The notes under the pieces were generated by a model. That model saw only the letters and a program-made list of their open reading frames with translations, ran no database searches and was not told the DNA's origin. From an archaeon (GTDB lineage: Archaea; Asgardarchaeota; Thorarchaeia; Thorarchaeales; Thorarchaeaceae), in the NCBI GenBank assembly GCA_024276825.1, contig JAJRWI010000034.1, forward strand, positions 1 through 22,978: DNA of 22,978 nucleotides, in the 5' to 3' direction. Positions 1,723 through 22,577 of this stretch are shown in pieces. Each line of letters opens with the position of its first letter. Positions within the stretch are counted from its first letter, which is position 1. A program made the translations under genes and the position numbers.

Positions 1723-3213
1723 ATGAGCGACTTTAGGGACCACATACCCTCTGATATGAGGGACTTTCTCGAGATTGCTTCTGATGCGGTGACTCGTTCT
1801 AAGAAAGTCTTAGCAATCTCTCACATTGATGCTGATGGAATCAGTTCTCTTGCTATTGTTGTCAATATGCTTGAAAGGCTGAATAAGAACAATACCTGGA
1901 GAAATATTCACCAGTTAAACTCAGAAACCATTTTTGAGGTCAAACAACTTGTCACAGATTTCAATCCCGATCTTGTGATATTTAGTGACCTTGGAACTGG
2001 TCAGATGCATCTTATTCAAGAGCATCTAGCAACAGAGAGTTCGGTTGAGCGAACAATCGTTCTTGATCACCACCTTTCTGGTGATGAACATGCCAGTCCC
2101 GCCGAATTGCTGGAGAGTGACTCGATCATTGAGATTAATCCCTGGCATCATCGACTGAGTGGGAGCTATGGTCTCTCTGGTGCAGGAACTGCCTTTCTTC
2201 TGGCATATGAGGTTTCGGAGGATAATGTTGACCTTACAGAGCTGGCAGTTGTCGGGGCCACAGGTGACCTTCAAGACTATTATGGAAAGGGCTTCAATTC
2301 GATAAACAAGGAAATCATTAGTCTTGGTATTGAATACGGATACTTACGAATTGACCGAGATCTGACATTCTTTGGTATTAATACGCGACCACTTCCGTAT
2401 CTTCTGCAATACGCCACTGACCCGTATCTTCCCGGAATAACTGGAAATGAAGATGCATGCTTTGAGTTCTTCAACAGGCTCGGAATTGAACTCAAACAGG
2501 GTGACACTTGGAGATTATGGGTTGATCTCTCACAGGACGAAAAGCAGAAGGTCATCCAGAATCTTATTCGAATCATTCTAGATGCCTATGATGACCCCCT
2601 CATAGCTACTGGCATTATAGGTGATGTCATAATTCTGGTTAAAAGGCCTCCCAGAACAGTCCTTCGGAGTGCTAAGGAGTTCTCCACCCTGCTGAATGCC
2701 TGCGGCAGAAATCGAAAGCCCGAGATTGGTGTAATGATATGTTTGGGTGATGAAGATGCATATCGTACAGGTCAAACACTTCTTCAACAACATAGGACAA
2801 ATCTCGCCATGGCACTGCGAAGACTGGAAAACAATTCATATCAAGAATATCCTGGAATGTATGTTGTAGACGATCCCGAAACACCCGACACAATAATTGG
2901 CATTGTCATTGGAATGGCGTTGGGATCGCGGATAATCCCAATAATTAAGCCTGTTATTGGAGTTGCAAGAAACACAACCGATGAGAGCGACACAATCAAG
3001 ATATCTGGCAGGTGCCATAAATCACTGGTTGACAAGGGTGTTAATCTCCGTGATATCTTTGTTGAAGTTTCTGAGATGTTGAATCGAAAATATGGTGGAT
3101 TAATTGCTGAAGCTGGAGGCCATCCAATGGCTGCCGGCGCTTTTGTTAAGGAAAAGCAACTGGATGAGTTCCTAAATGAAACATCATCTCAACTTGATTC
3201 AATATTGAACTAA
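1723..3213 (+). CDS. recJ: Archaeal RecJ-like DHH/DHHA1 phosphoesterase (ssDNA exonuclease, GAN/Cdc45-related family)
   Basis: Motifs HIDADG, SDLG, LDHH, VGATGD, NACGR, SGR and GGHPMAAGA. Confidence 0.9.
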   Translation: MSDFRDHIPSDMRDFLEIASDAVTRSKKVLAISHIDADGISSLAIVVNMLERLNKNNTWRNIHQLNSETIFEVKQLVTDFNPDLVIFSDLGTGQMHLIQEHLATESSVERTIVLDHHLSGDEHASPAELLESDSIIEINPWHHRLSGSYGLSGAGTAFLLAYEVSEDNVDLTELAVVGATGDLQDYYGKGFNSINKEIISLGIEYGYLRIDRDLTFFGINTRPLPYLLQYATDPYLPGITGNEDACFEFFNRLGIELKQGDTWRLWVDLSQDEKQKVIQNLIRIILDAYDDPLIATGIIGDVIILVKRPPRTVLRSAKEFSTLLNACGRNRKPEIGVMICLGDEDAYRTGQTLLQQHRTNLAMALRRLENNSYQEYPGMYVVDDPETPDTIIGIVIGMALGSRIIPIIKPVIGVARNTTDESDTIKISGRCHKSLVDKGVNLRDIFVEVSEMLNRKYGGLIAEAGGHPMAAGAFVKEKQLDEFLNETSSQLDSILN

Positions 3214-5526: not shown

Positions 5527-6366
5527 ATGAGTCCAACCAGAATCGCAACTCCCTTTTCAAAACTTCATGCTGCAAGCCTTCTCAGTCATAAATCACGAAT
5601 TGCTAAGTTTAGAAGCGCTATAGAACAAGCAGTTGATAAAGACAATGTTGTGCTTGACATCGGCACTGGCACTGGTGTTCTAGCAATACTTGCAGCAAGG
5701 CAAGGTGCCAGAAGAGTAATTGCCCTTGATATTGACGAAGGATGCATTAATTATGCGCGGCAGGCTGCAAGAGCAAATGGCGTTGAGGACATAATAGAAT
5801 TCAGGCATATGCATTTTGAAGAATGCGTCCCTGACTGTCAAGTTGATGTTGTCATATGCGAGATGCTATCATCAATGCTTCTCATAGAACAACAAGTGCC
5901 CGCTGCAATTCATGCCCGTGAAAAAATACTTGCCAGGCATGGAGTCTTTGTCCCTAAGGAAGCCACAGTCTACCTTGTGCCTGTCGAGTGTGAGAGTGTC
6001 TGGAATCGATTTGAGGTTGATGGCCTTATCTTTCCACGGGTGCCTCAGACAATAGATGGCACATCAGCACGAGACCTTGCTGATGCTTCAGTTCTGGAAG
6101 TGTTTGATTTCACAAGTAATGATATCCCGAGAGAAGTAGACAGGGAACTCAAATTCAAGATTGTTGATGATGGTTCACTTCATGGTTTTGTTGGATTCTT
6201 CGAGTCACGGTTGTATGGTGACTTAATTCTGCGCATGGATGATGGCTGGAAACCTCTTTTTCTACCTCTAGACAGTCCAATTTCAGTTCATAAGGATGAA
6301 TCCATATCGGTCTATATCAAGTATGAGGCTGGAAATGTGGACTCTCTCCAACTTGGTCTGCGATAA
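5527..6366 (+). CDS. SAM-dependent methyltransferase with protein arginine methyltransferase (PRMT)-like architecture
   Basis: Motif I VLDIGTGTG, E-x8-E double-E loop (EMLSSMLLIE), GVFVPKEATVYL linker, beta-barrel signatures LHGFVGFF and GWKPLFLPL. TTATAAGT box 24 nt upstream. Confidence 0.85.
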   Translation: MSPTRIATPFSKLHAASLLSHKSRIAKFRSAIEQAVDKDNVVLDIGTGTGVLAILAARQGARRVIALDIDEGCINYARQAARANGVEDIIEFRHMHFEECVPDCQVDVVICEMLSSMLLIEQQVPAAIHAREKILARHGVFVPKEATVYLVPVECESVWNRFEVDGLIFPRVPQTIDGTSARDLADASVLEVFDFTSNDIPREVDRELKFKIVDDGSLHGFVGFFESRLYGDLILRMDDGWKPLFLPLDSPISVHKDESISVYIKYEAGNVDSLQLGLR

Positions 6367-7263: not shown

Positions 7264-8127
7264 ATGGCGTTCAAGGCACATCTCTCATTTGTTCCGATCG
7301 ATCGTAGTAGGAAGGAGGATTTGGAGAACCTCCTACCTGTGGAAATTGGAATGTTTGGCGGTAGTGGGAATTATGATCCCGAAGTGATTGAGGACCCAAT
7401 AGAGGTCAAGGTATTCACGCCTTTTGGCGCAGCCTCTGACAACTACATTGTTGGAAAAGTGAAGGGGCGAAGTTTTGCATTCCTCGCAAGACATGCAAGA
7501 GGTCATCTAATACCTCCACATGCGATAAACTACAGAGCAAACATCTGGGGCATGAAGGCATTGGATGTTAAACGAATCATAAGCCCCGCTGCTTGTGGTA
7601 GTCTACAACCTGAAAAGATCAAACTAGGCGAGTTTGTTATTGCCGATCAGCTGTTTGACCGAACATTCGGTCAGAGAAAAGACACGTTCTTTGAAGGCGG
7701 ACCCATTGCACATCTGCCATTTGCTGAACCATTCTGCCCAGAACTTAGAAAGGTCGCCCTCGATACTGCAAACAAGCTTGGATACAAAGTGCATGACAAA
7801 GGGACATATGTTTGTATTAACGGCCCAAGATTCTCAACTGCTGCCGAATCAATGTTCTACCATAAACAGGGATTTGATGTAATTGGCATGACCGCATATC
7901 CTGAGGCCGCATTAGCGAGAGAAGCTGGAATTTGCTTTGTGAACATATCCATGCCCACTGACTACGATGTTCATGGAGAAGAAGGCCCAGTAACACATGA
8001 GATGGTACTTGCAACAATGGCAAAGAACATTGAGAGAGTCAAGAAGTTGACCTTTGAGATGATTGACAATATTCCCAAAGAGCCAAGTTGCACCTGCCAG
8101 ACAGCAATGGAACATGGGCTGTTTTAG
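7264..8127 (+). CDS. mtnP: 5'-methylthioadenosine phosphorylase
   Basis: GGSG, TPFG, RH...H..PPH.INYRANIW, GPRFST.AES, GMT..PEA, and the DYD motif typical of 6-aminopurine-specific MTAPs. Confidence 0.92.
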   Translation: MAFKAHLSFVPIDRSRKEDLENLLPVEIGMFGGSGNYDPEVIEDPIEVKVFTPFGAASDNYIVGKVKGRSFAFLARHARGHLIPPHAINYRANIWGMKALDVKRIISPAACGSLQPEKIKLGEFVIADQLFDRTFGQRKDTFFEGGPIAHLPFAEPFCPELRKVALDTANKLGYKVHDKGTYVCINGPRFSTAAESMFYHKQGFDVIGMTAYPEAALAREAGICFVNISMPTDYDVHGEEGPVTHEMVLATMAKNIERVKKLTFEMIDNIPKEPSCTCQTAMEHGLF

Positions 8128-8135
8128 ACGATTAT

Positions 8136-8160
8136 ACTGGGGAGGCCATGCCTCTCCAGT
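8136..8160. terminator. 11-bp hairpin between mtnP and the convergent acidic micro-ORF
   Basis: ACTGGGGAGGC-cat-GCCTCTCCAGT, with one G-T pair. Confidence 0.6.
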
Positions 8161-8169
8161 CAATGTTTC

Positions 8170-8283
8170 CTAGAAGTCGTCATCCTCACCAAGATCGTCG
8201 AGTTCATCTCCCCATTCCTCCTCATCCCAATCGACTTCATCAAGGACATCTTCTTTCTCATTATATTCTTCTTCAGTCATCAT
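8170..8283 (-). CDS. 37-aa highly acidic Trp-containing micro-protein
   Basis: MMTEEEYNEKEDVLDEVDWDEEEWGDELDDLGEDDDF*, 21 of 37 residues D/E. It fills an intergenic gap without overlap, has a TATA-like CTTATCTA 25 nt upstream and a hairpin downstream. Not in the ORF track. Confidence 0.75.
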   Translation of the reverse strand: MMTEEEYNEKEDVLDEVDWDEEEWGDELDDLGEDDDF

Positions 8284-8361
8284 CCTCAAATAATAAAACA
8301 CCCAATGATAGATAAGACTTCTCAAGAGTGAAAAATCAATGCTTTTTCGGATGGATCATTA

Positions 8362-9165
8362 ATGACAAGTTTACGAATTGCAGTGGGTCAGATTGAGCCT
8401 CGGATTGGGGATTTGCAATGGAACATTGAACAGATTCAACGCGCTCTAAATCAAGCGGCTGATAATAATGTGGATGTTCTCGTGCTTCCTGAACTGTCTA
8501 ACTCAGGCTATGCTTTTGCTAGCACCGATGAGGCTCTTGATTCCTCTGAGATTATTCCTGAAGGCGATATTTCCAGAATGCTACTTGAATGGAGCAGTGA
8601 CAACAAGATGGTAGTGGCAGGTATTTGTGAGAAGACCAATGATGGCCTATTCAATTCTGCTGCTGTAATTGCAAATGGAAAGCATATCACCACATACAGA
8701 AAGATTCACCTCTTTTACAAAGAGTTTGAATGGTTCATTCCTGGCGGTGCTGAACCTCCAGTGATCGAGTTCGAAGGACACAGGTTTGGTGTCATGATAT
8801 GCTTCGATTGGGCATTTCCTGAAATCGCACGGATTCTCGCATTAAAGGGTGCTCAAGTGATTCTTCATCCTGCCAACCTTGTGCTTCCGTATTGCTTCGA
8901 TGCAATGATCACGCGATCCATCGAGAATCGAGTATTCACAGCAACTGCTAATCGTATTGGTGTTGAACGAGATTTGAATTTCACTGGTCGCTCGCAGATC
9001 ACAAGTCCTGAGGGTAAACGCCTGCTCTCTCTCTCCAAAGAGGATGCCGGGATGGGAATGTTAGAGATTGACCCGAGCATTGCAGATGATAAAATGATAA
9101 CGGAGAGAAATGATGTCCTTGCAGACAGGCGGCCTGAACTCTACCGTCGGCTTGTTGAAAAATGA
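8362..9165 (+). CDS. Carbon-nitrogen hydrolase (nitrilase superfamily)
   Basis: Glu-Lys-Cys triad motifs LPEL, YRKIHL and ICFDW, plus RSIEN, ANRIG and C-terminal DRRPELY. Confidence 0.93.
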   Translation: MTSLRIAVGQIEPRIGDLQWNIEQIQRALNQAADNNVDVLVLPELSNSGYAFASTDEALDSSEIIPEGDISRMLLEWSSDNKMVVAGICEKTNDGLFNSAAVIANGKHITTYRKIHLFYKEFEWFIPGGAEPPVIEFEGHRFGVMICFDWAFPEIARILALKGAQVILHPANLVLPYCFDAMITRSIENRVFTATANRIGVERDLNFTGRSQITSPEGKRLLSLSKEDAGMGMLEIDPSIADDKMITERNDVLADRRPELYRRLVEK

Positions 9166-9550: not shown

Positions 9551-10090
9551 CTATTCTGCTGATGTGATGACTCGCTGAATCAACCAGAGTGTGTAAAAAC
9601 AGAAGATGATTATCATAAGTAATGATGGGATGAGCGACACTGCAAATCCTGGAATGAATGAAGCATTCACTGTGATCCATGATATGGTGTCCAAAGTTGC
9701 AACTGCAGCACATGCAAGCATCAATATCATGTTTGTAGGACCACCAAATCGAAGGTTTGAGTTTCCACCCTCTCTCCAGATTTTCAGCCCGAATATTGTG
9801 CCCACAGCGGCAAACACGATGACTATGTAATTCCCAACAATCAGATATCTCCATGGATTCCAGATTTCTGGAGGCGTGAATATGACAATGATGAGCCCGA
9901 TAATCGCAAGGAAGAATGCCATCTTTAGCCATGGGTCCTCCATGAATCCAGCCAGTTTGCTCTCCGTAATTGGACTTGGTAATTCATCAAGTCGAGTTTT
10001 CTCTTCCGGTTCCTCATCGGGAAATGCATCATCCTCTTCAGTATTATAGTCATCTTCAGTGCGGTTCATCTCAATCATCTCTTCATCCAA
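9551..10090 (-). CDS. Hypothetical membrane protein with an acidic N-terminal tail and about 4 TM helices
   Basis: D/E-rich first ~35 aa followed by four hydrophobic segments. Start uncertain (TTG 10090 or a later ATG). Confidence 0.8.
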   Translation of the reverse strand: MDEEMIEMNRTEDDYNTEEDDAFPDEEPEEKTRLDELPSPITESKLAGFMEDPWLKMAFFLAIIGLIIVIFTPPEIWNPWRYLIVGNYIVIVFAAVGTIFGLKIWREGGNSNLRFGGPTNMILMLACAAVATLDTISWITVNASFIPGFAVSLIPSLLMIIIFCFYTLWLIQRVITSAE

Positions 10091-10198: not shown

Positions 10199-10789
10199 AT
10201 GGCAATAGATAAGCAGTCTTTCGATAAACTCGTGTCTGAAGCTAGGACACTTAAGATGAGGGGGATTAATAAGAAGGCCATTGAGAAATTTAAAATGGCG
10301 CTTGATATCGACCCCAATAATCTAGACATAATAAACGAGGTCGGGTTGGCACTGATTCATATTGGTGAACAGCAAGAGGCCATTCAGTTTTTTAACAGAG
10401 CAATCACAATTGACCCCAAAGATCCACGAGGATATGCCAATAAAGCACAAGCATACCTTACCATGGGCGCATTTGAGGAGGCACTAGCTGTCACTAATGA
10501 TGCTCTCAAACATGTCATTGATAATTCTGATATCTGGGTAAAGAGAGCTAGGGCGCTAGAGAGTATGCTTCGGATTGACGAGGCAATAGATGCGTATAAT
10601 GAAGCTCTGAAATATAACTCTGAAGATCCAGAGATATGGAAGTCACTGGCACTATGTCTTGATGCTAAGGAAAAATGGACTGAAGTTGCAAGAGCCTATC
10701 GAATCGCCGCAAGTCTTCATAAAAAACGTGGCGAGAACCAAGATGCAGACTACTGTCTGAAATTCGCAGAAATGGCAGAACGATCATAA
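10199..10789 (+). CDS. TPR-repeat protein
   Basis: About five TPR motifs (AIEKFKMALDIDPNN, AIQFFNRAITIDPKD, AIDAYNEALKYNSED). Confidence 0.9.
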   Translation: MAIDKQSFDKLVSEARTLKMRGINKKAIEKFKMALDIDPNNLDIINEVGLALIHIGEQQEAIQFFNRAITIDPKDPRGYANKAQAYLTMGAFEEALAVTNDALKHVIDNSDIWVKRARALESMLRIDEAIDAYNEALKYNSEDPEIWKSLALCLDAKEKWTEVARAYRIAASLHKKRGENQDADYCLKFAEMAERS

Positions 10790-15016: not shown

Positions 15017-16822
15017 TTATGTTTCTGAATTCAGCCATGCATGCAGTTTTTTTGCGGCGGAGATTGTCATTCCATCAACCTCTGCAAGTTCTTCTATTGA
15101 TGCCTTCCTAACACCTTCTATACTTCCAAACTGCTTTAACAATGCGGCACGACGTTTGGGGCCAATCCCTGGGGCTTCTTCAAGTATTGACCCTGTAATT
15201 CGTTTCTCTCTCAGTTTATGGTGATATCTCTGGGCAAATCTGTGTGCTTCATCTCTAATATGCTGAACAAGTGAGAGTGCTTTAGATCCACTGTTGAGAA
15301 ATATTCCATCCATTTTTTCTCGGGTGTATAATATCTCCTCACGCTTTGCTATTGCGGCAACATTAAGATTATCGAGACTTAACTCTTCCAGTGCTCTGCA
15401 TGTTATATTCAGATGACCCTTCCCACCATCGATGAGAATCAAGTCGGGCAATGAGTCACCCCGTTGAAGCACTCCCTTATATCTGCGATAAACAACTTCA
15501 TGCATCATGGCATAATCATCTGGAGTTGACTTTGAACGGACTCTGAACATTCGATAGTTTCTCTTATCTGGTACTCCATTCTTGAAGACGACGCATGAGC
15601 CTGTTGGGTCTGTTCCCTGCACATTGGATATATCAAACCCCTCAATATGAATTGGCGCATGCTTCAGACCCAATACTTCTCGCAGGTCCTTGACTCCCTC
15701 ATTGATAATCAGGTCATCATGGCCTTCAAGCATAAGCATCTTTCTTAGAGCGCGATGAGCATTCCTGTTTGCCATCTTCATCAAATCGCGCTCTTCATCA
15801 GTTCTAGGCGTATGCAATATGACTGTTCGTCCTGCCCTCTCAGAGAGCCATTCAGACATCTTTTCAATCTCTGGAAAATCTATGCATACCATAATGAGGC
15901 CAGGCAATCGTGGAAGTGAAAAGTAGTATTGTTCGACAAATGCTCTGACTATTTCGGCGTCCGAGGTTTCAAGGGAGACTTCAAAATAGAAATTATCATG
16001 ACCAAGCAGACGACCCCCCCTGATTATTAGCAGCTCAATTAATGTGGCATCTTCAGTCCTCGCAATTCCAACTACATCACTGTCCACTTTCTTCTTTAAG
16101 ACAACTCTGCGTTTTTGAAGAATTATGCTGATATCAAGAAGTCTGTCCCGTAATACCGCCGCTCTTTCAAAGTTGAGTTCATCTGATGCAATCCTCATCT
16201 GCTCATTGATCAACTCTGTGAGTCGACCCAATCGACCATCAAGATACAATGTCATCTGCTCTACCAGAGACCTATAGTCCTCCTCGGAAACCTTGCCAAC
16301 GCAGGGCGCAGAACAACGCCCGACATGATGGTCAAGACATGCTCGCTTCTCTTTGGATGGATCAATACACATTGCAACAGGAATGTATTTTCGGACAGTG
16401 TCGAAGACACGATTTAGCCTCTTTGAGCTGCCATAAGGTCCAAAATAATCAACATTTGTAACTGATGTGTCGCGAGTGATCTCAAAAGTTGGAAATCTGG
16501 CCGATCTGTCGACCCTGACCCATGTCTGTACTCTGTCATCCTTGAGTGCAATGTTGTAGGGGGGTTGATGCTTCTTGATGAGCGTTGCTTCCAGTAAGAG
16601 AGCTTCTTGTTCAGTGTTTGTAAGAATGACTTCAATATCACGTGCCTTTTGCATCATCTCCCAGATACGAAGCTCAAGGCCACTAGTTCGCAGATATGAT
16701 GCAGTCCGTTTTCTTAGAGACTTGGCCTTGCCAATGTAGAGGATGTTGCCTGACTCATCTTTCCAGAGATAAACTCCAGGTTGGTCAGGCAGGTCTCGAA
16801 CAAGCCTCTTTAATTCGATCAT
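15017..16822 (-). CDS. uvrC: Excinuclease ABC subunit C
   Basis: GIY-YIG (GVYL...YIGKAKSLRKR), Cys cluster, UVR domain (LNFERAAVLRD), RNase H-like IEGFDISN, DDYAMM, IDGGKG and RDEAHRFA, then HhH. Confidence 0.97.
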   Translation of the reverse strand: MIELKRLVRDLPDQPGVYLWKDESGNILYIGKAKSLRKRTASYLRTSGLELRIWEMMQKARDIEVILTNTEQEALLLEATLIKKHQPPYNIALKDDRVQTWVRVDRSARFPTFEITRDTSVTNVDYFGPYGSSKRLNRVFDTVRKYIPVAMCIDPSKEKRACLDHHVGRCSAPCVGKVSEEDYRSLVEQMTLYLDGRLGRLTELINEQMRIASDELNFERAAVLRDRLLDISIILQKRRVVLKKKVDSDVVGIARTEDATLIELLIIRGGRLLGHDNFYFEVSLETSDAEIVRAFVEQYYFSLPRLPGLIMVCIDFPEIEKMSEWLSERAGRTVILHTPRTDEERDLMKMANRNAHRALRKMLMLEGHDDLIINEGVKDLREVLGLKHAPIHIEGFDISNVQGTDPTGSCVVFKNGVPDKRNYRMFRVRSKSTPDDYAMMHEVVYRRYKGVLQRGDSLPDLILIDGGKGHLNITCRALEELSLDNLNVAAIAKREEILYTREKMDGIFLNSGSKALSLVQHIRDEAHRFAQRYHHKLREKRITGSILEEAPGIGPKRRAALLKQFGSIEGVRKASIEELAEVDGMTISAAKKLHAWLNSET

Positions 16823-16833
16823 TCTTTCACACT

Positions 16834-19665
16834 CTACTCGATAACTTCTCTTAGGTACCTTCCTGTGTAAGATTTTTTCACATGTGCAATATCCTCAGGA
16901 GTTCCAACTGCAACTACCCTTCCCCCTCCATCACCGCCTTCGGGCCCGAGGTCAATCACCCAGTCTGCAGTCTTGATCACTTCCAGATTATGTTCAATCA
17001 TGATGATTGTATTTCCTGCATTAACAAGCCTATTAAGGGCATTCAGAAGGACATGAATGTCGTAAGATGAGAGGCCAGTTGTTGGTTCATCCAAGATATA
17101 CAGTGTGTTCTCCACGTTTTTCTTCCATAGTTCTGCAGCAATCTTCATCCTCTGAGCCTCTCCTCCTGATAGCTGCGTTGCTGGTTGTCCCAGCTTGAGA
17201 TAACCCAGTCCAACATCGATTAGCGTGGATAGTTTGTCAGTAATCCGCGAAATTCCAGAAAAGAACTCATGAGCCTCTTCAATTGTCAAGTCTAGCACTT
17301 CTGCAATATTCTTGCCCTTATATCGTATCTCAAGCGTTTCTCTGTCAAATCTGTCCCCCTTGCACACATCGCAGGTGATGTATACATCTGACATGAAGTG
17401 CATCTCGACGCGAATCACTCCACTGCCTTGACACTTCGCACATCTTCCCTCTGGTGTGTTGAAACTGAATCGTCCTGGTCTGTAGCCTCTCGCACGAGCC
17501 TCGGGAAGTCTTGCAAAGAGGTCTCTGATATGTCCAAAGGTCTGAGTATACGTGGCCGGATTTGACCGTGGAGTTCGACCTATTGGTGATTGATCCACAA
17601 GAACAACTCGTCCAATGTTCTCTAGCCCTTCTAGCGTGTCATGATCACCAGGTTTTATATCACTGCCATTGATAGCTCCTGCAAGCGTTTTGTACAGGGT
17701 TTCATGGACAAGTGTGCTCTTTCCAGAGCCGCTGACTCCGGTCACACAGATGAATGTGCCCAGAGGAAATCGGACATCAATGTTCTTTAGATTGTGCTGT
17801 CTGCATCCTCTCAGGGTCAGAAACTTTCCATTTCCCCCTCTTCGTTTTTGTGGGATTGGTATTCTTTTATTTCCAACAAGATATTGAGCAGTAAGAGACT
17901 CTGATTTTGAGAGGACTTCCGATGGTGACCCAGATGCGACAACTTTGCCTCCATGTGTACCCGCCTTTGGCCCGAGGTCAATAATGTAATCAGCAGCCAT
18001 GATTGTGTCTCTGTCATGCTCAATTACAATAACTGTGTTTCCAAGAGTCCGAAGGTCCTTGAAGGTCTTGATCAATCGATTGATATCTCTTGGATGCAGC
18101 CCTATGCTTGGCTCATCAAGACAATATAGGACGCCCGTCAATGCTGACCCAATCTGTGTTGCCAGTCTAATCCTCTGACTCTCGCCTCCTGAGAGCGTCA
18201 TTGAGAGTCTATCCAGATTTAGATATTCAAGACCAACTGATATTAGGAACTTCAATCTAGTCCTTATCTCCTTGAGTATGAGTTCAGCAATCTTCTGCTC
18301 CCTCTCAGTCAACTCCAGATTCTCAAAAAATTCCAGCGCCTCATCAATCTTCATTGCAGACACTTGATCAATCGACAAACCGCCAACTGTCACAGCAAGG
18401 CTTTCAGGTTTAAGCTTCTTTCCATTACATAATGAACAGGTGGTCTTCCTTGCAAACTGCTCACCAATCACCTGCGCGCGCCATTGATGCCATCGCTTGT
18501 CGCTGTGCAAGCCCTCTTCAAAGACCCTCTTCATCCATGGGATTAGCCCAAGCCATTTTCTTGAGACCTCCCATCTTGACTGATACTCTTCTGAACCAAT
18601 AGTGTAGTTCAATATTACTTCGGGCTTTCCCCATAGCAGAATACTTCTCTGGGTCTCATCAAGTTCTTTGATCGGCCTATCAAGCGAAAAGCCAACAGTA
18701 TTAGCAAGAGCCTCAATACGCTTAACGTACGAAGTGGTCTTGCCCATGGCCCTTGAAACAATCTCTCGGACAGTTCGAGAATCATCGGGGACCACTAAAT
18801 CAGGATCGATGTTCATCGTCATTCCAAGACCATTGCACATCGGGCATGCACCGTCTGGTCTGTTGTATGAGAATGCCTTGGGGCTTAACTTCTCATATTG
18901 TATTCCGCAATATGGACACATGAGTTGTTCAGCAAAGATTAGATCATCCATGCCTTCACGACTAACAATCGCCACTCCTTCGCTGATCTCAAGTGCGGTT
19001 TTAAGGGAGCCAATAAGGCGTTCTCGATTCCTAGTGCTTAACTCTAATCTGTCTACAATCACTTCGATTGTGTGCTTTAGGCGGCCATCTATCTCAACGT
19101 CCTCAATGTCATAGATCTCACCATCAACTCTCACGCGTGCAAATCCATTCTTCAAAAGATGATCCATGATCTCTCTGTGCTTGCCTGCCTTGTCTTTAAC
19201 AACTGGCGATAAAATATGAATCTTCTGACCTCTGTTCTCGTTAAACAGAAGGCTTGCAGCAGCCTCAGGAGTGAGGTGCTCCATTTGTCTTCCACATTTA
19301 ATACAATGAGGTATTCCAATATTTGAATAAAGCAATCTAAAATAGTCATGAATCTCGGTCGATGTCGCAACTGTGCTTCGAGGGTTTCGAGTCCTGCCCC
19401 TTTGCTCGATGGAGATTGCTGGTGGAATGCCCGTTATGCTCTCAACACGAGGCTTGTCTAACCTGCCCAGAAACCTCCTTGCATAGGACGACAAAGACTC
19501 GACATAGCGTCTCTGACCTTCAGCAAAGATTGTGTCAAACACTAGCGTTGATTTACCGGAGCCCGATGGTCCAGTGATAATAACAAGGCGATTTCTGGGA
19601 ATGTCCACTGATATATCTTTAAGGTTGTGCTCTGATGCCCTCTTAATGGAGATATGCCCCTTCAT
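16834..19665 (-). CDS. uvrA: Excinuclease ABC subunit A, paralog 2
   Basis: Two ABC ATPase modules ([21 protein letters not shown] twice, DEP twice), [26 protein letters not shown] and all zinc-binding CxxC pairs. Confidence 0.96.
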   Translation of the reverse strand: MKGHISIKRASEHNLKDISVDIPRNRLVIITGPSGSGKSTLVFDTIFAEGQRRYVESLSSYARRFLGRLDKPRVESITGIPPAISIEQRGRTRNPRSTVATSTEIHDYFRLLYSNIGIPHCIKCGRQMEHLTPEAAASLLFNENRGQKIHILSPVVKDKAGKHREIMDHLLKNGFARVRVDGEIYDIEDVEIDGRLKHTIEVIVDRLELSTRNRERLIGSLKTALEISEGVAIVSREGMDDLIFAEQLMCPYCGIQYEKLSPKAFSYNRPDGACPMCNGLGMTMNIDPDLVVPDDSRTVREIVSRAMGKTTSYVKRIEALANTVGFSLDRPIKELDETQRSILLWGKPEVILNYTIGSEEYQSRWEVSRKWLGLIPWMKRVFEEGLHSDKRWHQWRAQVIGEQFARKTTCSLCNGKKLKPESLAVTVGGLSIDQVSAMKIDEALEFFENLELTEREQKIAELILKEIRTRLKFLISVGLEYLNLDRLSMTLSGGESQRIRLATQIGSALTGVLYCLDEPSIGLHPRDINRLIKTFKDLRTLGNTVIVIEHDRDTIMAADYIIDLGPKAGTHGGKVVASGSPSEVLSKSESLTAQYLVGNKRIPIPQKRRGGNGKFLTLRGCRQHNLKNIDVRFPLGTFICVTGVSGSGKSTLVHETLYKTLAGAINGSDIKPGDHDTLEGLENIGRVVLVDQSPIGRTPRSNPATYTQTFGHIRDLFARLPEARARGYRPGRFSFNTPEGRCAKCQGSGVIRVEMHFMSDVYITCDVCKGDRFDRETLEIRYKGKNIAEVLDLTIEEAHEFFSGISRITDKLSTLIDVGLGYLKLGQPATQLSGGEAQRMKIAAELWKKNVENTLYILDEPTTGLSSYDIHVLLNALNRLVNAGNTIIMIEHNLEVIKTADWVIDLGPEGGDGGGRVVAVGTPEDIAHVKKSYTGRYLREVIE

Positions 19666-22577
19666 CTCATATTCCCCCGAATTGAACTAATAGGCAGCTT
19701 CTGTCTGAGAAACTGACCTGTGTACGACTTATCGCATTGTGCAATTACTTCTGGAGGACCTTCTGCCACAATGAATCCTCCCTCATCTCCGCCTTCGGGC
19801 CCAAGATCAATTATCCAGTCTGCAGTCTTTATCACATCCATCTGGTGTTCTATAATCAACACTGTATTGCCAAGGTCCACAAGTCTATGAAGAACTTCCA
19901 ACAGTTTCTTTATGTCTGCAAAATGAAGCCCCGTGGTTGGCTCGTCAAGCAGGATCAATGTCTGACCAGTTGCAGGTCTAGATAGGAACTTGCTGAGTTT
20001 GACCCTCTGGGCCTCACCGCCAGAGAGTGTGGTCGCGGGCTGTCCAAGCTTCACATAACCCATACCAACCTCGCACAGAGTATCAAGTCTGCGCTTAATT
20101 GATGGTATTTCCTCAAAGAACTCCCGCGCCTCATCAATCCGCATCTCCAATATGTCAGCAATGTTCTTTCCCTTGTATCTGACCTGAAGAGTTTCTCGAT
20201 TATATCGTCTACCATTACACTCATTACAGGTCACCTGTACTGGGGGAAGAAACTGCATCTCAATGATCTCAACTCCGGCGCCCTTGCACTTTTCACATCT
20301 ACCTCCCTTGACATTGAAGCTGAACCTGCCTGGTTTGTATCCTCGAATCTTTGATTCTGGCAGACTGGCGAAGAGTTCTCGAAGGGGCCCCCACAGTCCG
20401 GTATAGGTTGCGGGGTTTGATCTTGGAGTCCTTCCAATTGGACTCTGATCTATGACAATGACCTTGTCCAGCTCCTCAATACCGACAATCTCATCATGGT
20501 CGCCGGGAATCCTCTCGGCACGATGAAATACTCGTGCGAGAGCTCTCTGAAGAGTGTCAACAATCAGACTTGACTTTCCACTTCCGCTTACTCCCGTCAC
20601 ACAGACAAAAAGTCCCAATGGAATCTTTACATCTATGTTCTTCAAATTATTATGTCGCGCGCCCTTTATCTCAATGAAGCGACCATTTGGTACTCGCCTT
20701 CTCTCAGGAACAGGAATGTTATCATCTCCTCTGAGGAATCTACCTGTCACTGAGCGGTCGCATTCAAGCACCTTCTTTAGTGTGCCAGCGACCACTATTT
20801 CGCCCCCTTCTGCACCAGCACCAATTCCAAGATCAACAATATAGTCTGCCCAGAGCATGGTCTCCTCATCATGCTCCACAACAATGACTGTGTTCCCGAG
20901 ATCTCTGAGTTTTATCAGTGAACTTAGAAGTCTGGTGTTGTCACGGGCATGAAGGCCAATGGACGGTTCATCGCATACATAAGTGATCCCAACGAGATTT
21001 GATCCTATTTGACTGGCAAGGCGAATCCTCTGGGCCTCTCCGCCGCTCAGGCCAGGTGCCCTTCTGTCCAATGTCAGATAATCAAGACCCACCTCGACAA
21101 GATAGTCCAAGCGACTTCTGATTTCTTTTAGAATTGGCTCTGCAACAGGGCGAAGCCTCTTTTCTATTTTGGCTGCATTGAAGAACTCATGAAGTGCTTT
21201 GATTGACATATTGTTAAGATCAGTGATTGACTTTCCATTGAACAGCACTGCTCTTGCTTCTGGCCTTAATCGAGTCCCTTTGCAAGTCGGGCAGACCTGT
21301 TGCGACATGAACTTGCCAAGCTGCTTTCTTCTCATCTCAGACTTGGTCTGCATGTATAGGCGTCTTGTGTTGGGAATGATGCCCTCAAAGGGTTCATTCC
21401 AATAGCCCTTCCATTGCACCTCCCATTTTGAACTTCCACTCTCATGCGAGAATTGAAACTTGGTGTTTCCCGACCCATAGAGAATGACCCTCTTTTGCTC
21501 TTCTGTGAGGTCTTTCCATAGAGTATCTGGACTGAACCCATAGTGCTTACTTAGGGTCTCACGCCATCTGGTTGCTATCTTGCCATCCCCAGAAAACCAT
21601 TGCAGGTCCTTAAAACGAATATTGGGGTCAGGGATGAACAGGTCAGGATCAAACTCGTTGATGAACCCAAGTCCCGTGCATTGTGGGCATGCACCATAGG
21701 GCGTGTTCCATGAGAACACTCTTGGCTCCATTTCTGGAAGACTGATCCCACAATCAACACAAGCAAACTGTTCTGAGAGTGTGATCTCCCCCTCATCACT
21801 TAGAATAGTGACAACTCCCTCTGCCATCTTAAGAGATGTTTCAATCCCTTCTGCTATCCGACCGCGCTCTGAATCACTTACTCTAATGCGATCAACGACC
21901 ACCTCAATAGTGTGTTCATAGTATCTGTCCAGAGAGAGACCCTCCTCTATCTCTCTTATCTCGCCATCTATTCTTGCACGGACAAAGCCCTTCCTAAGCA
22001 GATCATTGAACTCCTTGCGGTACTCTCCCTTTCGGCCCCTCACGATAGGTGCTAGAATCACTATCTTGGTGCCTTCTTCAAGTTGCAGAACCCGATCTAC
22101 AATCTGTTGTGCAGTCTGTGGCTCAATCTGTTTTCCGCAGTTTGGACAGTGTGGCACACCAACACGAGCAAACAGCAGTCTCAAGTAGTCGTAAATCTCT
22201 GTAATTGTGCCCACTGTGCTACGTGGATTTCTTCCGACGCTCTTCTGATCAATGGAAATCGATGGCGATAGCCCTGAGATGAACTCTACCTTTGGCTTTT
22301 CAAGCATTCCAAGAAACTGCCTTGCATATGGCGATAATGACTCGATGAATCTACGTTGCCCTTCTGCATAGATAGTATCAAAGACAAGACTTGATTTTCC
22401 TGAGCCTGAAACTCCGGTCACAACGGTCAACGAGTCCCGAGGAATCTCAACAGAAACGTGCTTGAGGTTGTGTTCAAAGGCTCCAACAACAGAAATTGTT
22501 CTGGGCCCGTCGAAATCCTGATCATCCATGAACTGGGCTGAGTCCGTCACTTTGCGCTTTCCTCGAGTCTGTACCAT
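19662..22577 (-). CDS. uvrA: Excinuclease ABC subunit A, paralog 1
   Basis: GVSGSGKS twice, LSGGEAQR twice, DEPSIGLH and DEPTTGLH, UvrB-binding and insertion domains, zinc modules. The start could be the later ATG (MDDQD). Confidence 0.97.

Follow-up and report, generated by a model that had tools for sequence, protein, structure and literature searches.

The window analysed here is an entire contig of 22,978 bp from a Thorarchaeota genome (the host genome, G000; 2.94 Mb, 98% complete). Its subject is a minus-strand gene for a 37-residue, extremely acidic micro-protein, P0001, which lies between a phosphorylase gene and a nitrilase-type gene. The features of this locus are as follows.

7264 to 8127, plus strand: PNP_UDP_1 phosphorylase, MTAP-like, by Pfam profile match; stop codon at 8125 to 8127
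8131 to 8164, no strand assigned: GC-rich hairpin, folding at -16 kcal/mol, z = -3.46 against shuffled sequences
8283 to 8170, minus strand: micro-protein gene P0001, 37 codons plus a TAG stop (8172 to 8170); the host orthologue of type A of an acidic-Trp family
8173 to 8187, minus strand: acidic C-terminus E-D-D-D-F, with an aromatic end and the stop codon directly after it
8203 to 8235, minus strand: core motif V-D-W-D-E-E-E-W-G-D-E, residues 17-27, from the type A alignment
8287 to 8284, minus strand: Shine-Dalgarno-like (SD-like) GAGG abutting the tandem ATGs, an atypically short spacing
8315 to 8308, minus strand: TATA-like box TTATCTAT, a consensus match that ends 24 nt before the first ATG
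8362 to 9165, plus strand: CN_hydrolase (nitrilase-type), by Pfam profile match

The micro-protein contains 21 Asp or Glu residues and one Lys, its aromatic residues are Tyr7, Trp19, Trp24 and Phe37, and its net charge is about -20. Translation of the open reading frame (ORF) thus reproduced exactly the hyper-acidic composition, with its Y/W/W/F series, that an earlier note on this DNA had described, and the Pfam profiles agree with the mtnP and nitrilase neighbours named there. Relatives of the MTAP gene carry the label Candidatus Thorarchaeota. Two ATG codons stand in tandem at the start (8283 and 8280), and the gap that holds the gene measures 234 bp from the 3' end of MTAP to the 5' end of the nitrilase gene. 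The composition is singular in the host genome. Among 24,671 ATG-started ORFs of 20-90 residues, P0001 is the sole case with at least 45% Asp plus Glu, and in a six-frame translation it alone has at least 12 acidic residues together with at least two Trp within 20 residues. An identical 37-residue sequence is present, without a name, in a protein collection (source NCBI). The P0001 region also has a frame of 75 codons open on the plus strand. No tRNA was found in the window, and the best match of an Rfam 15 search was sR2 (14.9 bits, E = 0.98, against a gathering score of 42).

The TATA-like box falls within a 78-bp divergent region common to P0001 and the nitrilase gene, and from its sequence and position it is a candidate promoter of a leaderless P0001 transcript. 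The genes at 1723 and 5527 have A/T boxes at similar distances and no SD site; the box described earlier at 25 nt was thus recovered, as were its parallels at 1723 and 5527. The SD-like site of P0001 itself lies at -4/-7, whereas the long genes of the host genome show a sharp SD peak starting at -12. Across the family, defined for such counts as a set of 36 acidic micro-ORFs, a GAGGTGA-like site occupies positions -15 to -9 in 29, and these include ORFs with GTG and TTG starts. At the other end of the gene the hairpin, likewise part of the earlier description, fills the 42 nt that separate the convergent stop codons of MTAP and the micro-ORF. GC hairpins occur at the equivalent place in several orthologous loci, and the element is possibly a shared terminator or an RNA-stability element.

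Relatives of P0001 were recovered through synteny combined with a profile; a single-sequence six-frame search of related genomes yielded almost nothing. The gene order phosphoribosyltransferase, MTAP, gap, nitrilase, MazG-like, membrane protein, TPR, PLD-like, permease is found family-wide, and of 16 sampled Thorarchaeaceae genera, 9 have syntenic type A orthologues between MTAP and the nitrilase gene. Where the MTAP-nitrilase interval exceeds about 190 bp, one or two small ORFs, very acidic and dotted with Trp, are read from its opposite strand. Of 45 Thorarchaeota loci, about half have an interval of just 50-110 bp with no acidic ORF in it. The MTAP/nitrilase neighbourhood was considered as a clue to function and rejected: the adjacency is equally conserved where the peptide is missing, and the context is therefore uninformative on this point.

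Alignment of the type A ORFs, which is also the basis of the family profile, gave the core W-x-D-[DE]-V-[DE]-W-x-E-E-x-W-G-D-[DE]-W...D-D-W. In P0001 numbering the invariant residues are W24, E22 and D26; W19 and E21 come close to invariance. An aromatic residue (W, F or Y) directly precedes the stop codon in 34 of the 36 family ORFs. P0001 has the features that define the type, namely a V-[DE]-W-x-E-E-x-W-[GD]-D core, an acidic end closed by W or F, a length of 30-50 residues and a place in the MTAP-nitrilase interval. In a six-frame search of the host genome the type A profile matched the P0001 site (8173-8280) with E = 1.1e-8.

The pattern of substitution is that of coding sequence read on the minus strand. 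Pairwise differences per codon position are 0.25, 0.29 and 0.59 for the first, second and third positions, and several synonymous codons are used in the conserved Gly, Val, Glu and Asp columns. The ratio of non-synonymous to synonymous divergence (dN/dS, Nei-Gojobori) is 0.12-0.31 for unsaturated pairs within a single genus (g4), and the pooled ratio of the corresponding proportions (pN/pS) is 0.25-0.35 in four groupings. The variable positions correspond to second positions of the open plus-strand frame, and the plus strand is therefore not the coding one. Together, the synteny, the codon-position pattern, the synonymous codons, the dN/dS values, the SD sites and the placement of the stop codon establish that the gene is real and the family protein-coding; the members of the P0001 family are real genes under selection at the amino-acid level. 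The free-standing gene and the aromatic anchors proposed in the earlier note are therefore upheld by orthologues, by codon-level selection and ribosome-binding sites in relatives, and by the conservation of the Trp and other aromatic positions across the alignment. The frame is intact in relatives, and the gene is not the decayed 3' end of a longer one, since the profile matches proteins of at most 91 residues and the motif is C-terminal in them.

Searched against 1.84 billion representative proteins, the type A profile had only seven matches at E <= 1e-3, P0001 among them (E = 4.6e-5). All seven are 37-91 residues long, carry the motif at the extreme C-terminus and are named at most 'hypothetical protein'; no fused form occurs among them. 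In a six-frame profile search, type A was present in 21 of 81 Thorarchaeaceae genomes, nearly always in single copy, and was clustered by genus. It occurs in genera g1, g4 (5 of 7 genomes), g5 (3 of 5), g7, g9, g10, g12, g15 and g16, and is rare or absent in g2, g3 (0 of 17), g6 (1 of 23), g8 (0 of 7) and g11. This genus-grouped distribution points to vertical inheritance with lineage-specific loss or divergence. Judged from the genomes in which its sequences occur, type A is a family specific to Thorarchaeaceae and inherited vertically inside the MTAP-nitrilase interval. P0001 had no Pfam match and no PDB-sequence match (profile search, E <= 10), and an ESM Atlas feature search returned at best unnamed clusters of 32-55 residues at 0.78-0.81, below the useful range. 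No description of the family was found in the literature on Asgard DSS1, on the acidity of Thorarchaeota TBP or on small acidic Trp proteins.

A sister type of micro-ORF, type B, consists of near-pure (D/E)n-W repeats of 25-32 residues, with a hydrophobic-Phe-Asp-Asp N-terminus and a D-D-D-W end. As a DNA pattern, [DE]4-W-stop was found in 63 of 76 Thorarchaeaceae genomes. A second Asgard family, one member of which is labelled Candidatus Hodarchaeota by NCBI, has it in 18 of 19. In most other Asgard families the pattern occurs in about 15% of genomes, and a reversed-pattern control gave 0-2 sites per genome. The neighbours of 20 of these sites were examined. Type B ORFs adjoin an orphan protein of about 280 residues with a pI of 10.2-11.3, which was aligned separately; the two genes are divergent in Thorarchaeota, and in the second family they are co-directional, type B lying about 420 nt from the basic gene in a downstream arrangement. 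In several genomes types B and A flank the basic gene inside the MTAP-nitrilase gap, and in a genome of the same genus as the host (G002) a type B-like sequence stands at the P0001 position. At every locus inspected the sister micro-ORFs were missing from the called-gene lists. The sites concerned are these.

L043:2005-3301; also L038, L039, L044, L052, L053, L141 and L143-L145, and Hodarchaeota L169-L172: basic orphan gene with a (D/E)n-W micro-ORF
L141:2498-2626, plus strand: lysine-rich micro-ORF directly downstream of a type B gene, in one genus

Searches of NCBIfam, Pfam and PDB sequences with the basic orphan protein were empty or gave noise. Its structural model is of good quality (predicted local distance difference test, pLDDT, 83; predicted template-modelling score, pTM, 0.79). 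The closest structures are unnamed Thorarchaeota and Bathyarchaeota proteins (TM 0.74-0.83), followed by ChrB_N/PaaX_M (TM 0.43-0.49). A Foldseek search against the PDB returned nothing at E <= 1e-3 and only weak ferredoxin-like, PaaX and Cas2 similarities, and in VIA-align comparisons only the C-terminal three-helix bundle matched spectrin-like repeats, a generic likeness. The protein occurs in 56 of 80 Thorarchaeaceae genomes. It was not found in g4 (0 of 7), g5 (0 of 5) or g16, and neither it (tblastn and profile) nor type B was found in the host genome. The basic orphan was accordingly rejected as a necessary partner of P0001: it is missing from the host and from g4, g5 and g16, which keep type A. 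Three genera thus retain type A without the basic protein, and one of them, g4, is the source of the dN/dS values; type A therefore has its own function. A complex prediction for the basic orphan with a type A peptide, run without controls, scored 0.00 and speaks neither for nor against such a pairing.

Two larger proteins likewise have [DE]4-W-stop sites at their C-termini: TBP (Pfam TBP, E = 9e-61) and a Zn-ribbon protein, rich in Cys, of about 110 residues and without a Pfam match. In the host genome two Trp stand in the acidic tail of TBP, and the tail of the Zn-ribbon protein is long and acidic and contains F and W. A further acidic stretch lies close to P0001 in the window itself.

G000 C19:24630-25205 (minus strand) and C33:15956-16150 (plus strand), with L137:2500-3117 and L139:2492-2845: sites of the TBP and Zn-ribbon tails
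9551 to 10090, minus strand: membrane protein of 179 residues, three genes from P0001, with a strongly acidic N-terminal tail containing Tyr and Phe

The L042 orthologue of this membrane protein has a longer tail of D, E, Y, F and W. The recurrence of Trp-punctuated acidic stretches suggests a common kind of binding surface. A bolder proposal would be that the type A and type B peptides and the TBP and Zn-ribbon tails form an Asgard-specific acidic/aromatic docking code read by one or a few basic surfaces, with the peptide serving, for example, to regulate TBP or chromatin proteins in a TAND-like way or by mimicking DNA. We consider this quite unlikely as it stands; if true, it would be a prokaryotic forerunner of eukaryotic interactions of the acidic activation-domain, DSS1 and TAND type.

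The AlphaFold model of P0001 has a pTM of 0.32 and no compact fold. It shows an N-terminal helix over residues 4-16 and coil at the Trp motif, the only C-terminal helix being at residues 28-31, and this agrees with the disorder proposed in the earlier note. The reading to which we give about an even chance is that P0001 is a real, translated, single-copy gene whose product is a free-standing polyanionic docking or competitor peptide. The peptide probably docks on a basic partner, and it is reasonable to regard it as a putative nucleic-acid mimic or hub. The features under selection are the hydrophobic...V-[DE]-W-x-E-E-x-W-G-D-x-hydrophobic motif, the acidity, and the acidic C-terminus with its aromatic free carboxylate. 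The Trp, Val and Phe side-chains may plug hydrophobic pockets on the basic surface of the partner, with the acidic residues supplying long-range electrostatics and affinity. Specificity would then rest with the Val and the invariant pair of Trp residues, the turn formed by Gly-Asp and the carboxylate of the terminal aromatic residue. Bound in this way, the peptide could mimic or compete with nucleic acid, a polycationic ligand, or the acidic-Trp tails of TBP or the Zn-ribbon protein. Disorder-based binding, the class of target and expression of this particular copy are what we infer.

Several points weigh against the docking-peptide reading. Conserved acidity and Trp would also fit cation or polyamine buffering, or the precursor of a modified peptide. 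Because a frame built of GAN codons is readily kept open, ORF integrity alone is weak evidence, and the coding case rests instead on the codon-position, motif and SD evidence. P0001 is, moreover, the most divergent type A copy, with dN of 0.39-0.66 to the other members. It has two Trp against four to six in most orthologues; at two of the usual four or five Trp positions it has Leu, and it ends in Phe in place of Trp. Its SD site abuts the start codon rather than lying at -12. This copy could be weakly expressed or under relaxed constraint.

The divergence, the Trp losses and the SD site against the ATG make relaxed constraint a live rival. That the family is real and the copy in this genome is decaying or orphaned and no longer functional seems unlikely. 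The terminal Phe would fit such decay, as would the fact that neither the basic orphan nor type B was found in a genome that is 98% complete. However, the core residues W19, E21, E22, W24 and D26 are intact, as are the frame, the start and the stop right after an aromatic residue; the replacement of Trp by Leu is comparable to the I, V or F seen in other lineages; purifying selection maintains type A in entire genera that lack the basic protein; and the TATA-like box, spaced as for a leaderless transcript, would allow initiation by another route. That the locus is not protein-coding at all, being instead a purine-rich tract, an antisense or terminator element of MTAP, or a regulatory mini-ORF of Trp codons, is barely credible. 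It is true that GAN repeats leave several frames open on either strand, the 75-codon plus-strand frame included, that transcription of the minus strand would continue antisense into the 3' end of MTAP, and that multiple Trp codons recall attenuator leaders. Yet variation is concentrated at third positions of the minus-strand frame, which are second positions of the plus-strand one; synonymous codon use, dN/dS well below 1, the SD distance and the fixed stop after an aromatic residue all speak for translation; and there is neither a downstream gene on the minus strand to attenuate nor an Rfam match above noise.

The remaining alternatives accept a protein and differ on what it does. P0001 might bind polyamines, histones or Lys-rich peptides through charge alone and so serve as a buffer or chaperone for polycations, much as prothymosin-alpha does with histone H1, perhaps linked to the salvage of MTA and polyamine by-products by its neighbours; this is rather unlikely. 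The net charge, the K-rich micro-ORF that follows a type B gene in one genus, and the salvage enzymes nearby (MTAP, phosphoribosyltransferase and nitrilase-type hydrolase) are in keeping with it, but charge-only binding leaves the invariant W...W-G-D core and the terminal aromatic residue unexplained. Furthermore, no K-rich micro-ORF was found near P0001 or as a small ORF anywhere in the host genome, and genera without the peptide conserve the MTAP-nitrilase adjacency to the same degree. Very unlikely, in our view, is an archaeal tryptophan-acidic short linear motif of eukaryotic type, as in the shuffled ATG8/UFM1-interacting motif (AIM) of C53, the DDW motif of Arp2/3 ligands, or the W-acidic motifs bound by TPR and mu-homology domains. 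The C53 motif has the consensus I-D-W-G/D and is repeated in an acidic disordered region (PMC10183829). P0001 holds V-D-W-D (residues 17-20) and E-W-G-D (residues 23-26), the family is rich in DDW and EDW, and a TPR protein of 196 residues, at 10199-10789, is conserved five genes away. The TPR gene, however, is equally conserved in genera without the peptide, and the resemblance amounts to four or five residues within low-complexity sequence. The host genome had no match to the Pfam profiles of Ufm1, ATG8, ubiquitin, UFL1, ARPC4 or the mu-homology domain, but several of these profiles matched no control genome either, so that the negative does not establish absence. Descent is at issue in the proposal of the earlier note that P0001 is a Sem1-like analogue or precursor: a homologue, analogue by descent or precursor of Sem1/DSS1 that would bind PCI or OB partners and mimic single-stranded DNA. 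DSS1 has a W-x3-W core, an acidic run, E-D-D-F and a C-terminal helix. The layout of P0001 is DSS1-like in its small size, its acidity, its V-x-W...W-D-D...E-D-D-F-like order and its Asgard host. Nevertheless, a search of P0001, 11 relatives and the six-frame translation of the host genome with the DSS1_SEM1 profile (PF05160) gave no match at E <= 10, a negative to be read with the caution that HMMER bias filters may suppress weak matches to this profile, and the PDB-sequence profile search was likewise empty. The Trp spacing is W-x4-W in P0001 against W-x3-W in Sem1, and the protein stops at F37 without a DSS1-like C-terminal helix. The seven small proteins matched by the family profile include no intermediates toward eukaryotic proteins, and PCI-profile matches in the host genome are weak, of winged-helix type and found likewise in bacterial controls. 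The proposed kinship is therefore not sustained for a protein confined to one archaeal family, and we regard it as highly improbable; with the DSS1_SEM1 profile failing and no Pfam, PDB-sequence or Rfam match, the Sem1 reading stays an analogy.

P0001 belongs to an undescribed, lineage-restricted family of micro-proteins, presumably of the acidic, disordered docking-peptide kind. What is new here is the type A motif, with its codon and SD support, its distribution by genus and its independence from the basic orphan, together with the type B module in Hodarchaeota and the matching tails on TBP and the Zn-ribbon protein. Archaeal annotation mostly misses micro-proteins of fewer than 50 residues, and the information content of P0001 is a tryptophan-acidic linear motif only. 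Motifs of this kind are common in eukaryotes (DSS1, acidic activation domains, SSB-like tails and W-acidic cargo motifs); to our knowledge, such a motif as a stand-alone prokaryotic gene is scarcely documented. The identity of the partner would show if Asgard archaea already used motif-based, disorder-mediated regulation, and would also explain the similar tail on TBP. Should the partner prove trivial, the family would still be a clean test case for the comparative-genomic validation of genes of fewer than 50 residues.

Other genes of the window, and one further ORF of the host genome, are listed here for completeness.

1723 to 3213, plus strand: DHH / DHH-CID / DHHA1 protein (RecJ/GAN, Cdc45-like), with a TATA-like box about 26 nt upstream and no SD site; looks leaderless
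5527 to 6366, plus strand: methyltransferase of 279 residues, matching the PRMT5_C oligomerisation domain (E = 1.8e-10); conserved as the first gene of the salvage cluster
15017 to 22577, minus strand: tandem UvrA paralogues (943 and 971 residues), then UvrC (601 residues)
G000 C49:16452-16631, plus strand: ORF of 157 residues with weak, overlapping PCI and DDRGK profile matches of winged-helix type; the DDRGK/PCI-like part, 16452-16610, is sub-threshold

From its domain match, the product of 5527-6366 is possibly a protein arginine methyltransferase-like enzyme. With their duplicated UvrA, the Uvr genes make up a set for nucleotide-excision repair of bacterial type, here in an Asgard genome. 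UFL1 and DDRGK1 are said to originate in Asgard archaea (PMC10183829).

Several known systems bear comparison with P0001. Its sister, type B, shares its composition, Trp periodicity, SD signals and lineage and ends in D-D-D-W; type A differs in having the V-x-W-x-E-E-x-W-G-D core and in persisting without the basic gene. Among eukaryotic proteins, Sem1/DSS1 is likewise a free-standing, acidic, disordered small protein with Trp and Phe anchors in a roughly similar order, V-W-gap-W-acidic run-E-D-D-F, from which P0001 departs in profile, Trp spacing, helix and confinement to Thorarchaeaceae. C53/CDK5RAP3 has hydrophobic-D-W-[GD] units in an acidic disordered stretch, as in P0001 (PMC10183829), but it is a large eukaryotic receptor, and the host genome has no profile match for UFM1, ATG8, ubiquitin or UFL1. 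For the DDW motif of WASP and cortactin, the ARPC4 profile was unmatched in the host genome and also in every control genome, and at 37 residues P0001 is too short to contain a WH2-like or central region. The prothymosin-alpha/histone H1 tail system resembles P0001 in its extreme negative charge and lack of a fold, and type B does stand beside very basic proteins or peptides; prothymosin-alpha, however, has no conserved aromatic anchors, and P0001 has no basic neighbour. Bacterial SSB C-terminal tails (SSB-Ct; D-D-D-I-P-F) and those of phage T7 gp2.5 dock in a hydrophobic pocket next to basic residues and compete with DNA. Like the E-D-D-D-F end of P0001, they combine an acidic run with a terminal aromatic residue and its free carboxylate. 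Whereas these are tails on OB-fold proteins, in P0001 the motif is the whole protein, and it carries in addition the W-x4-W-G-D core.

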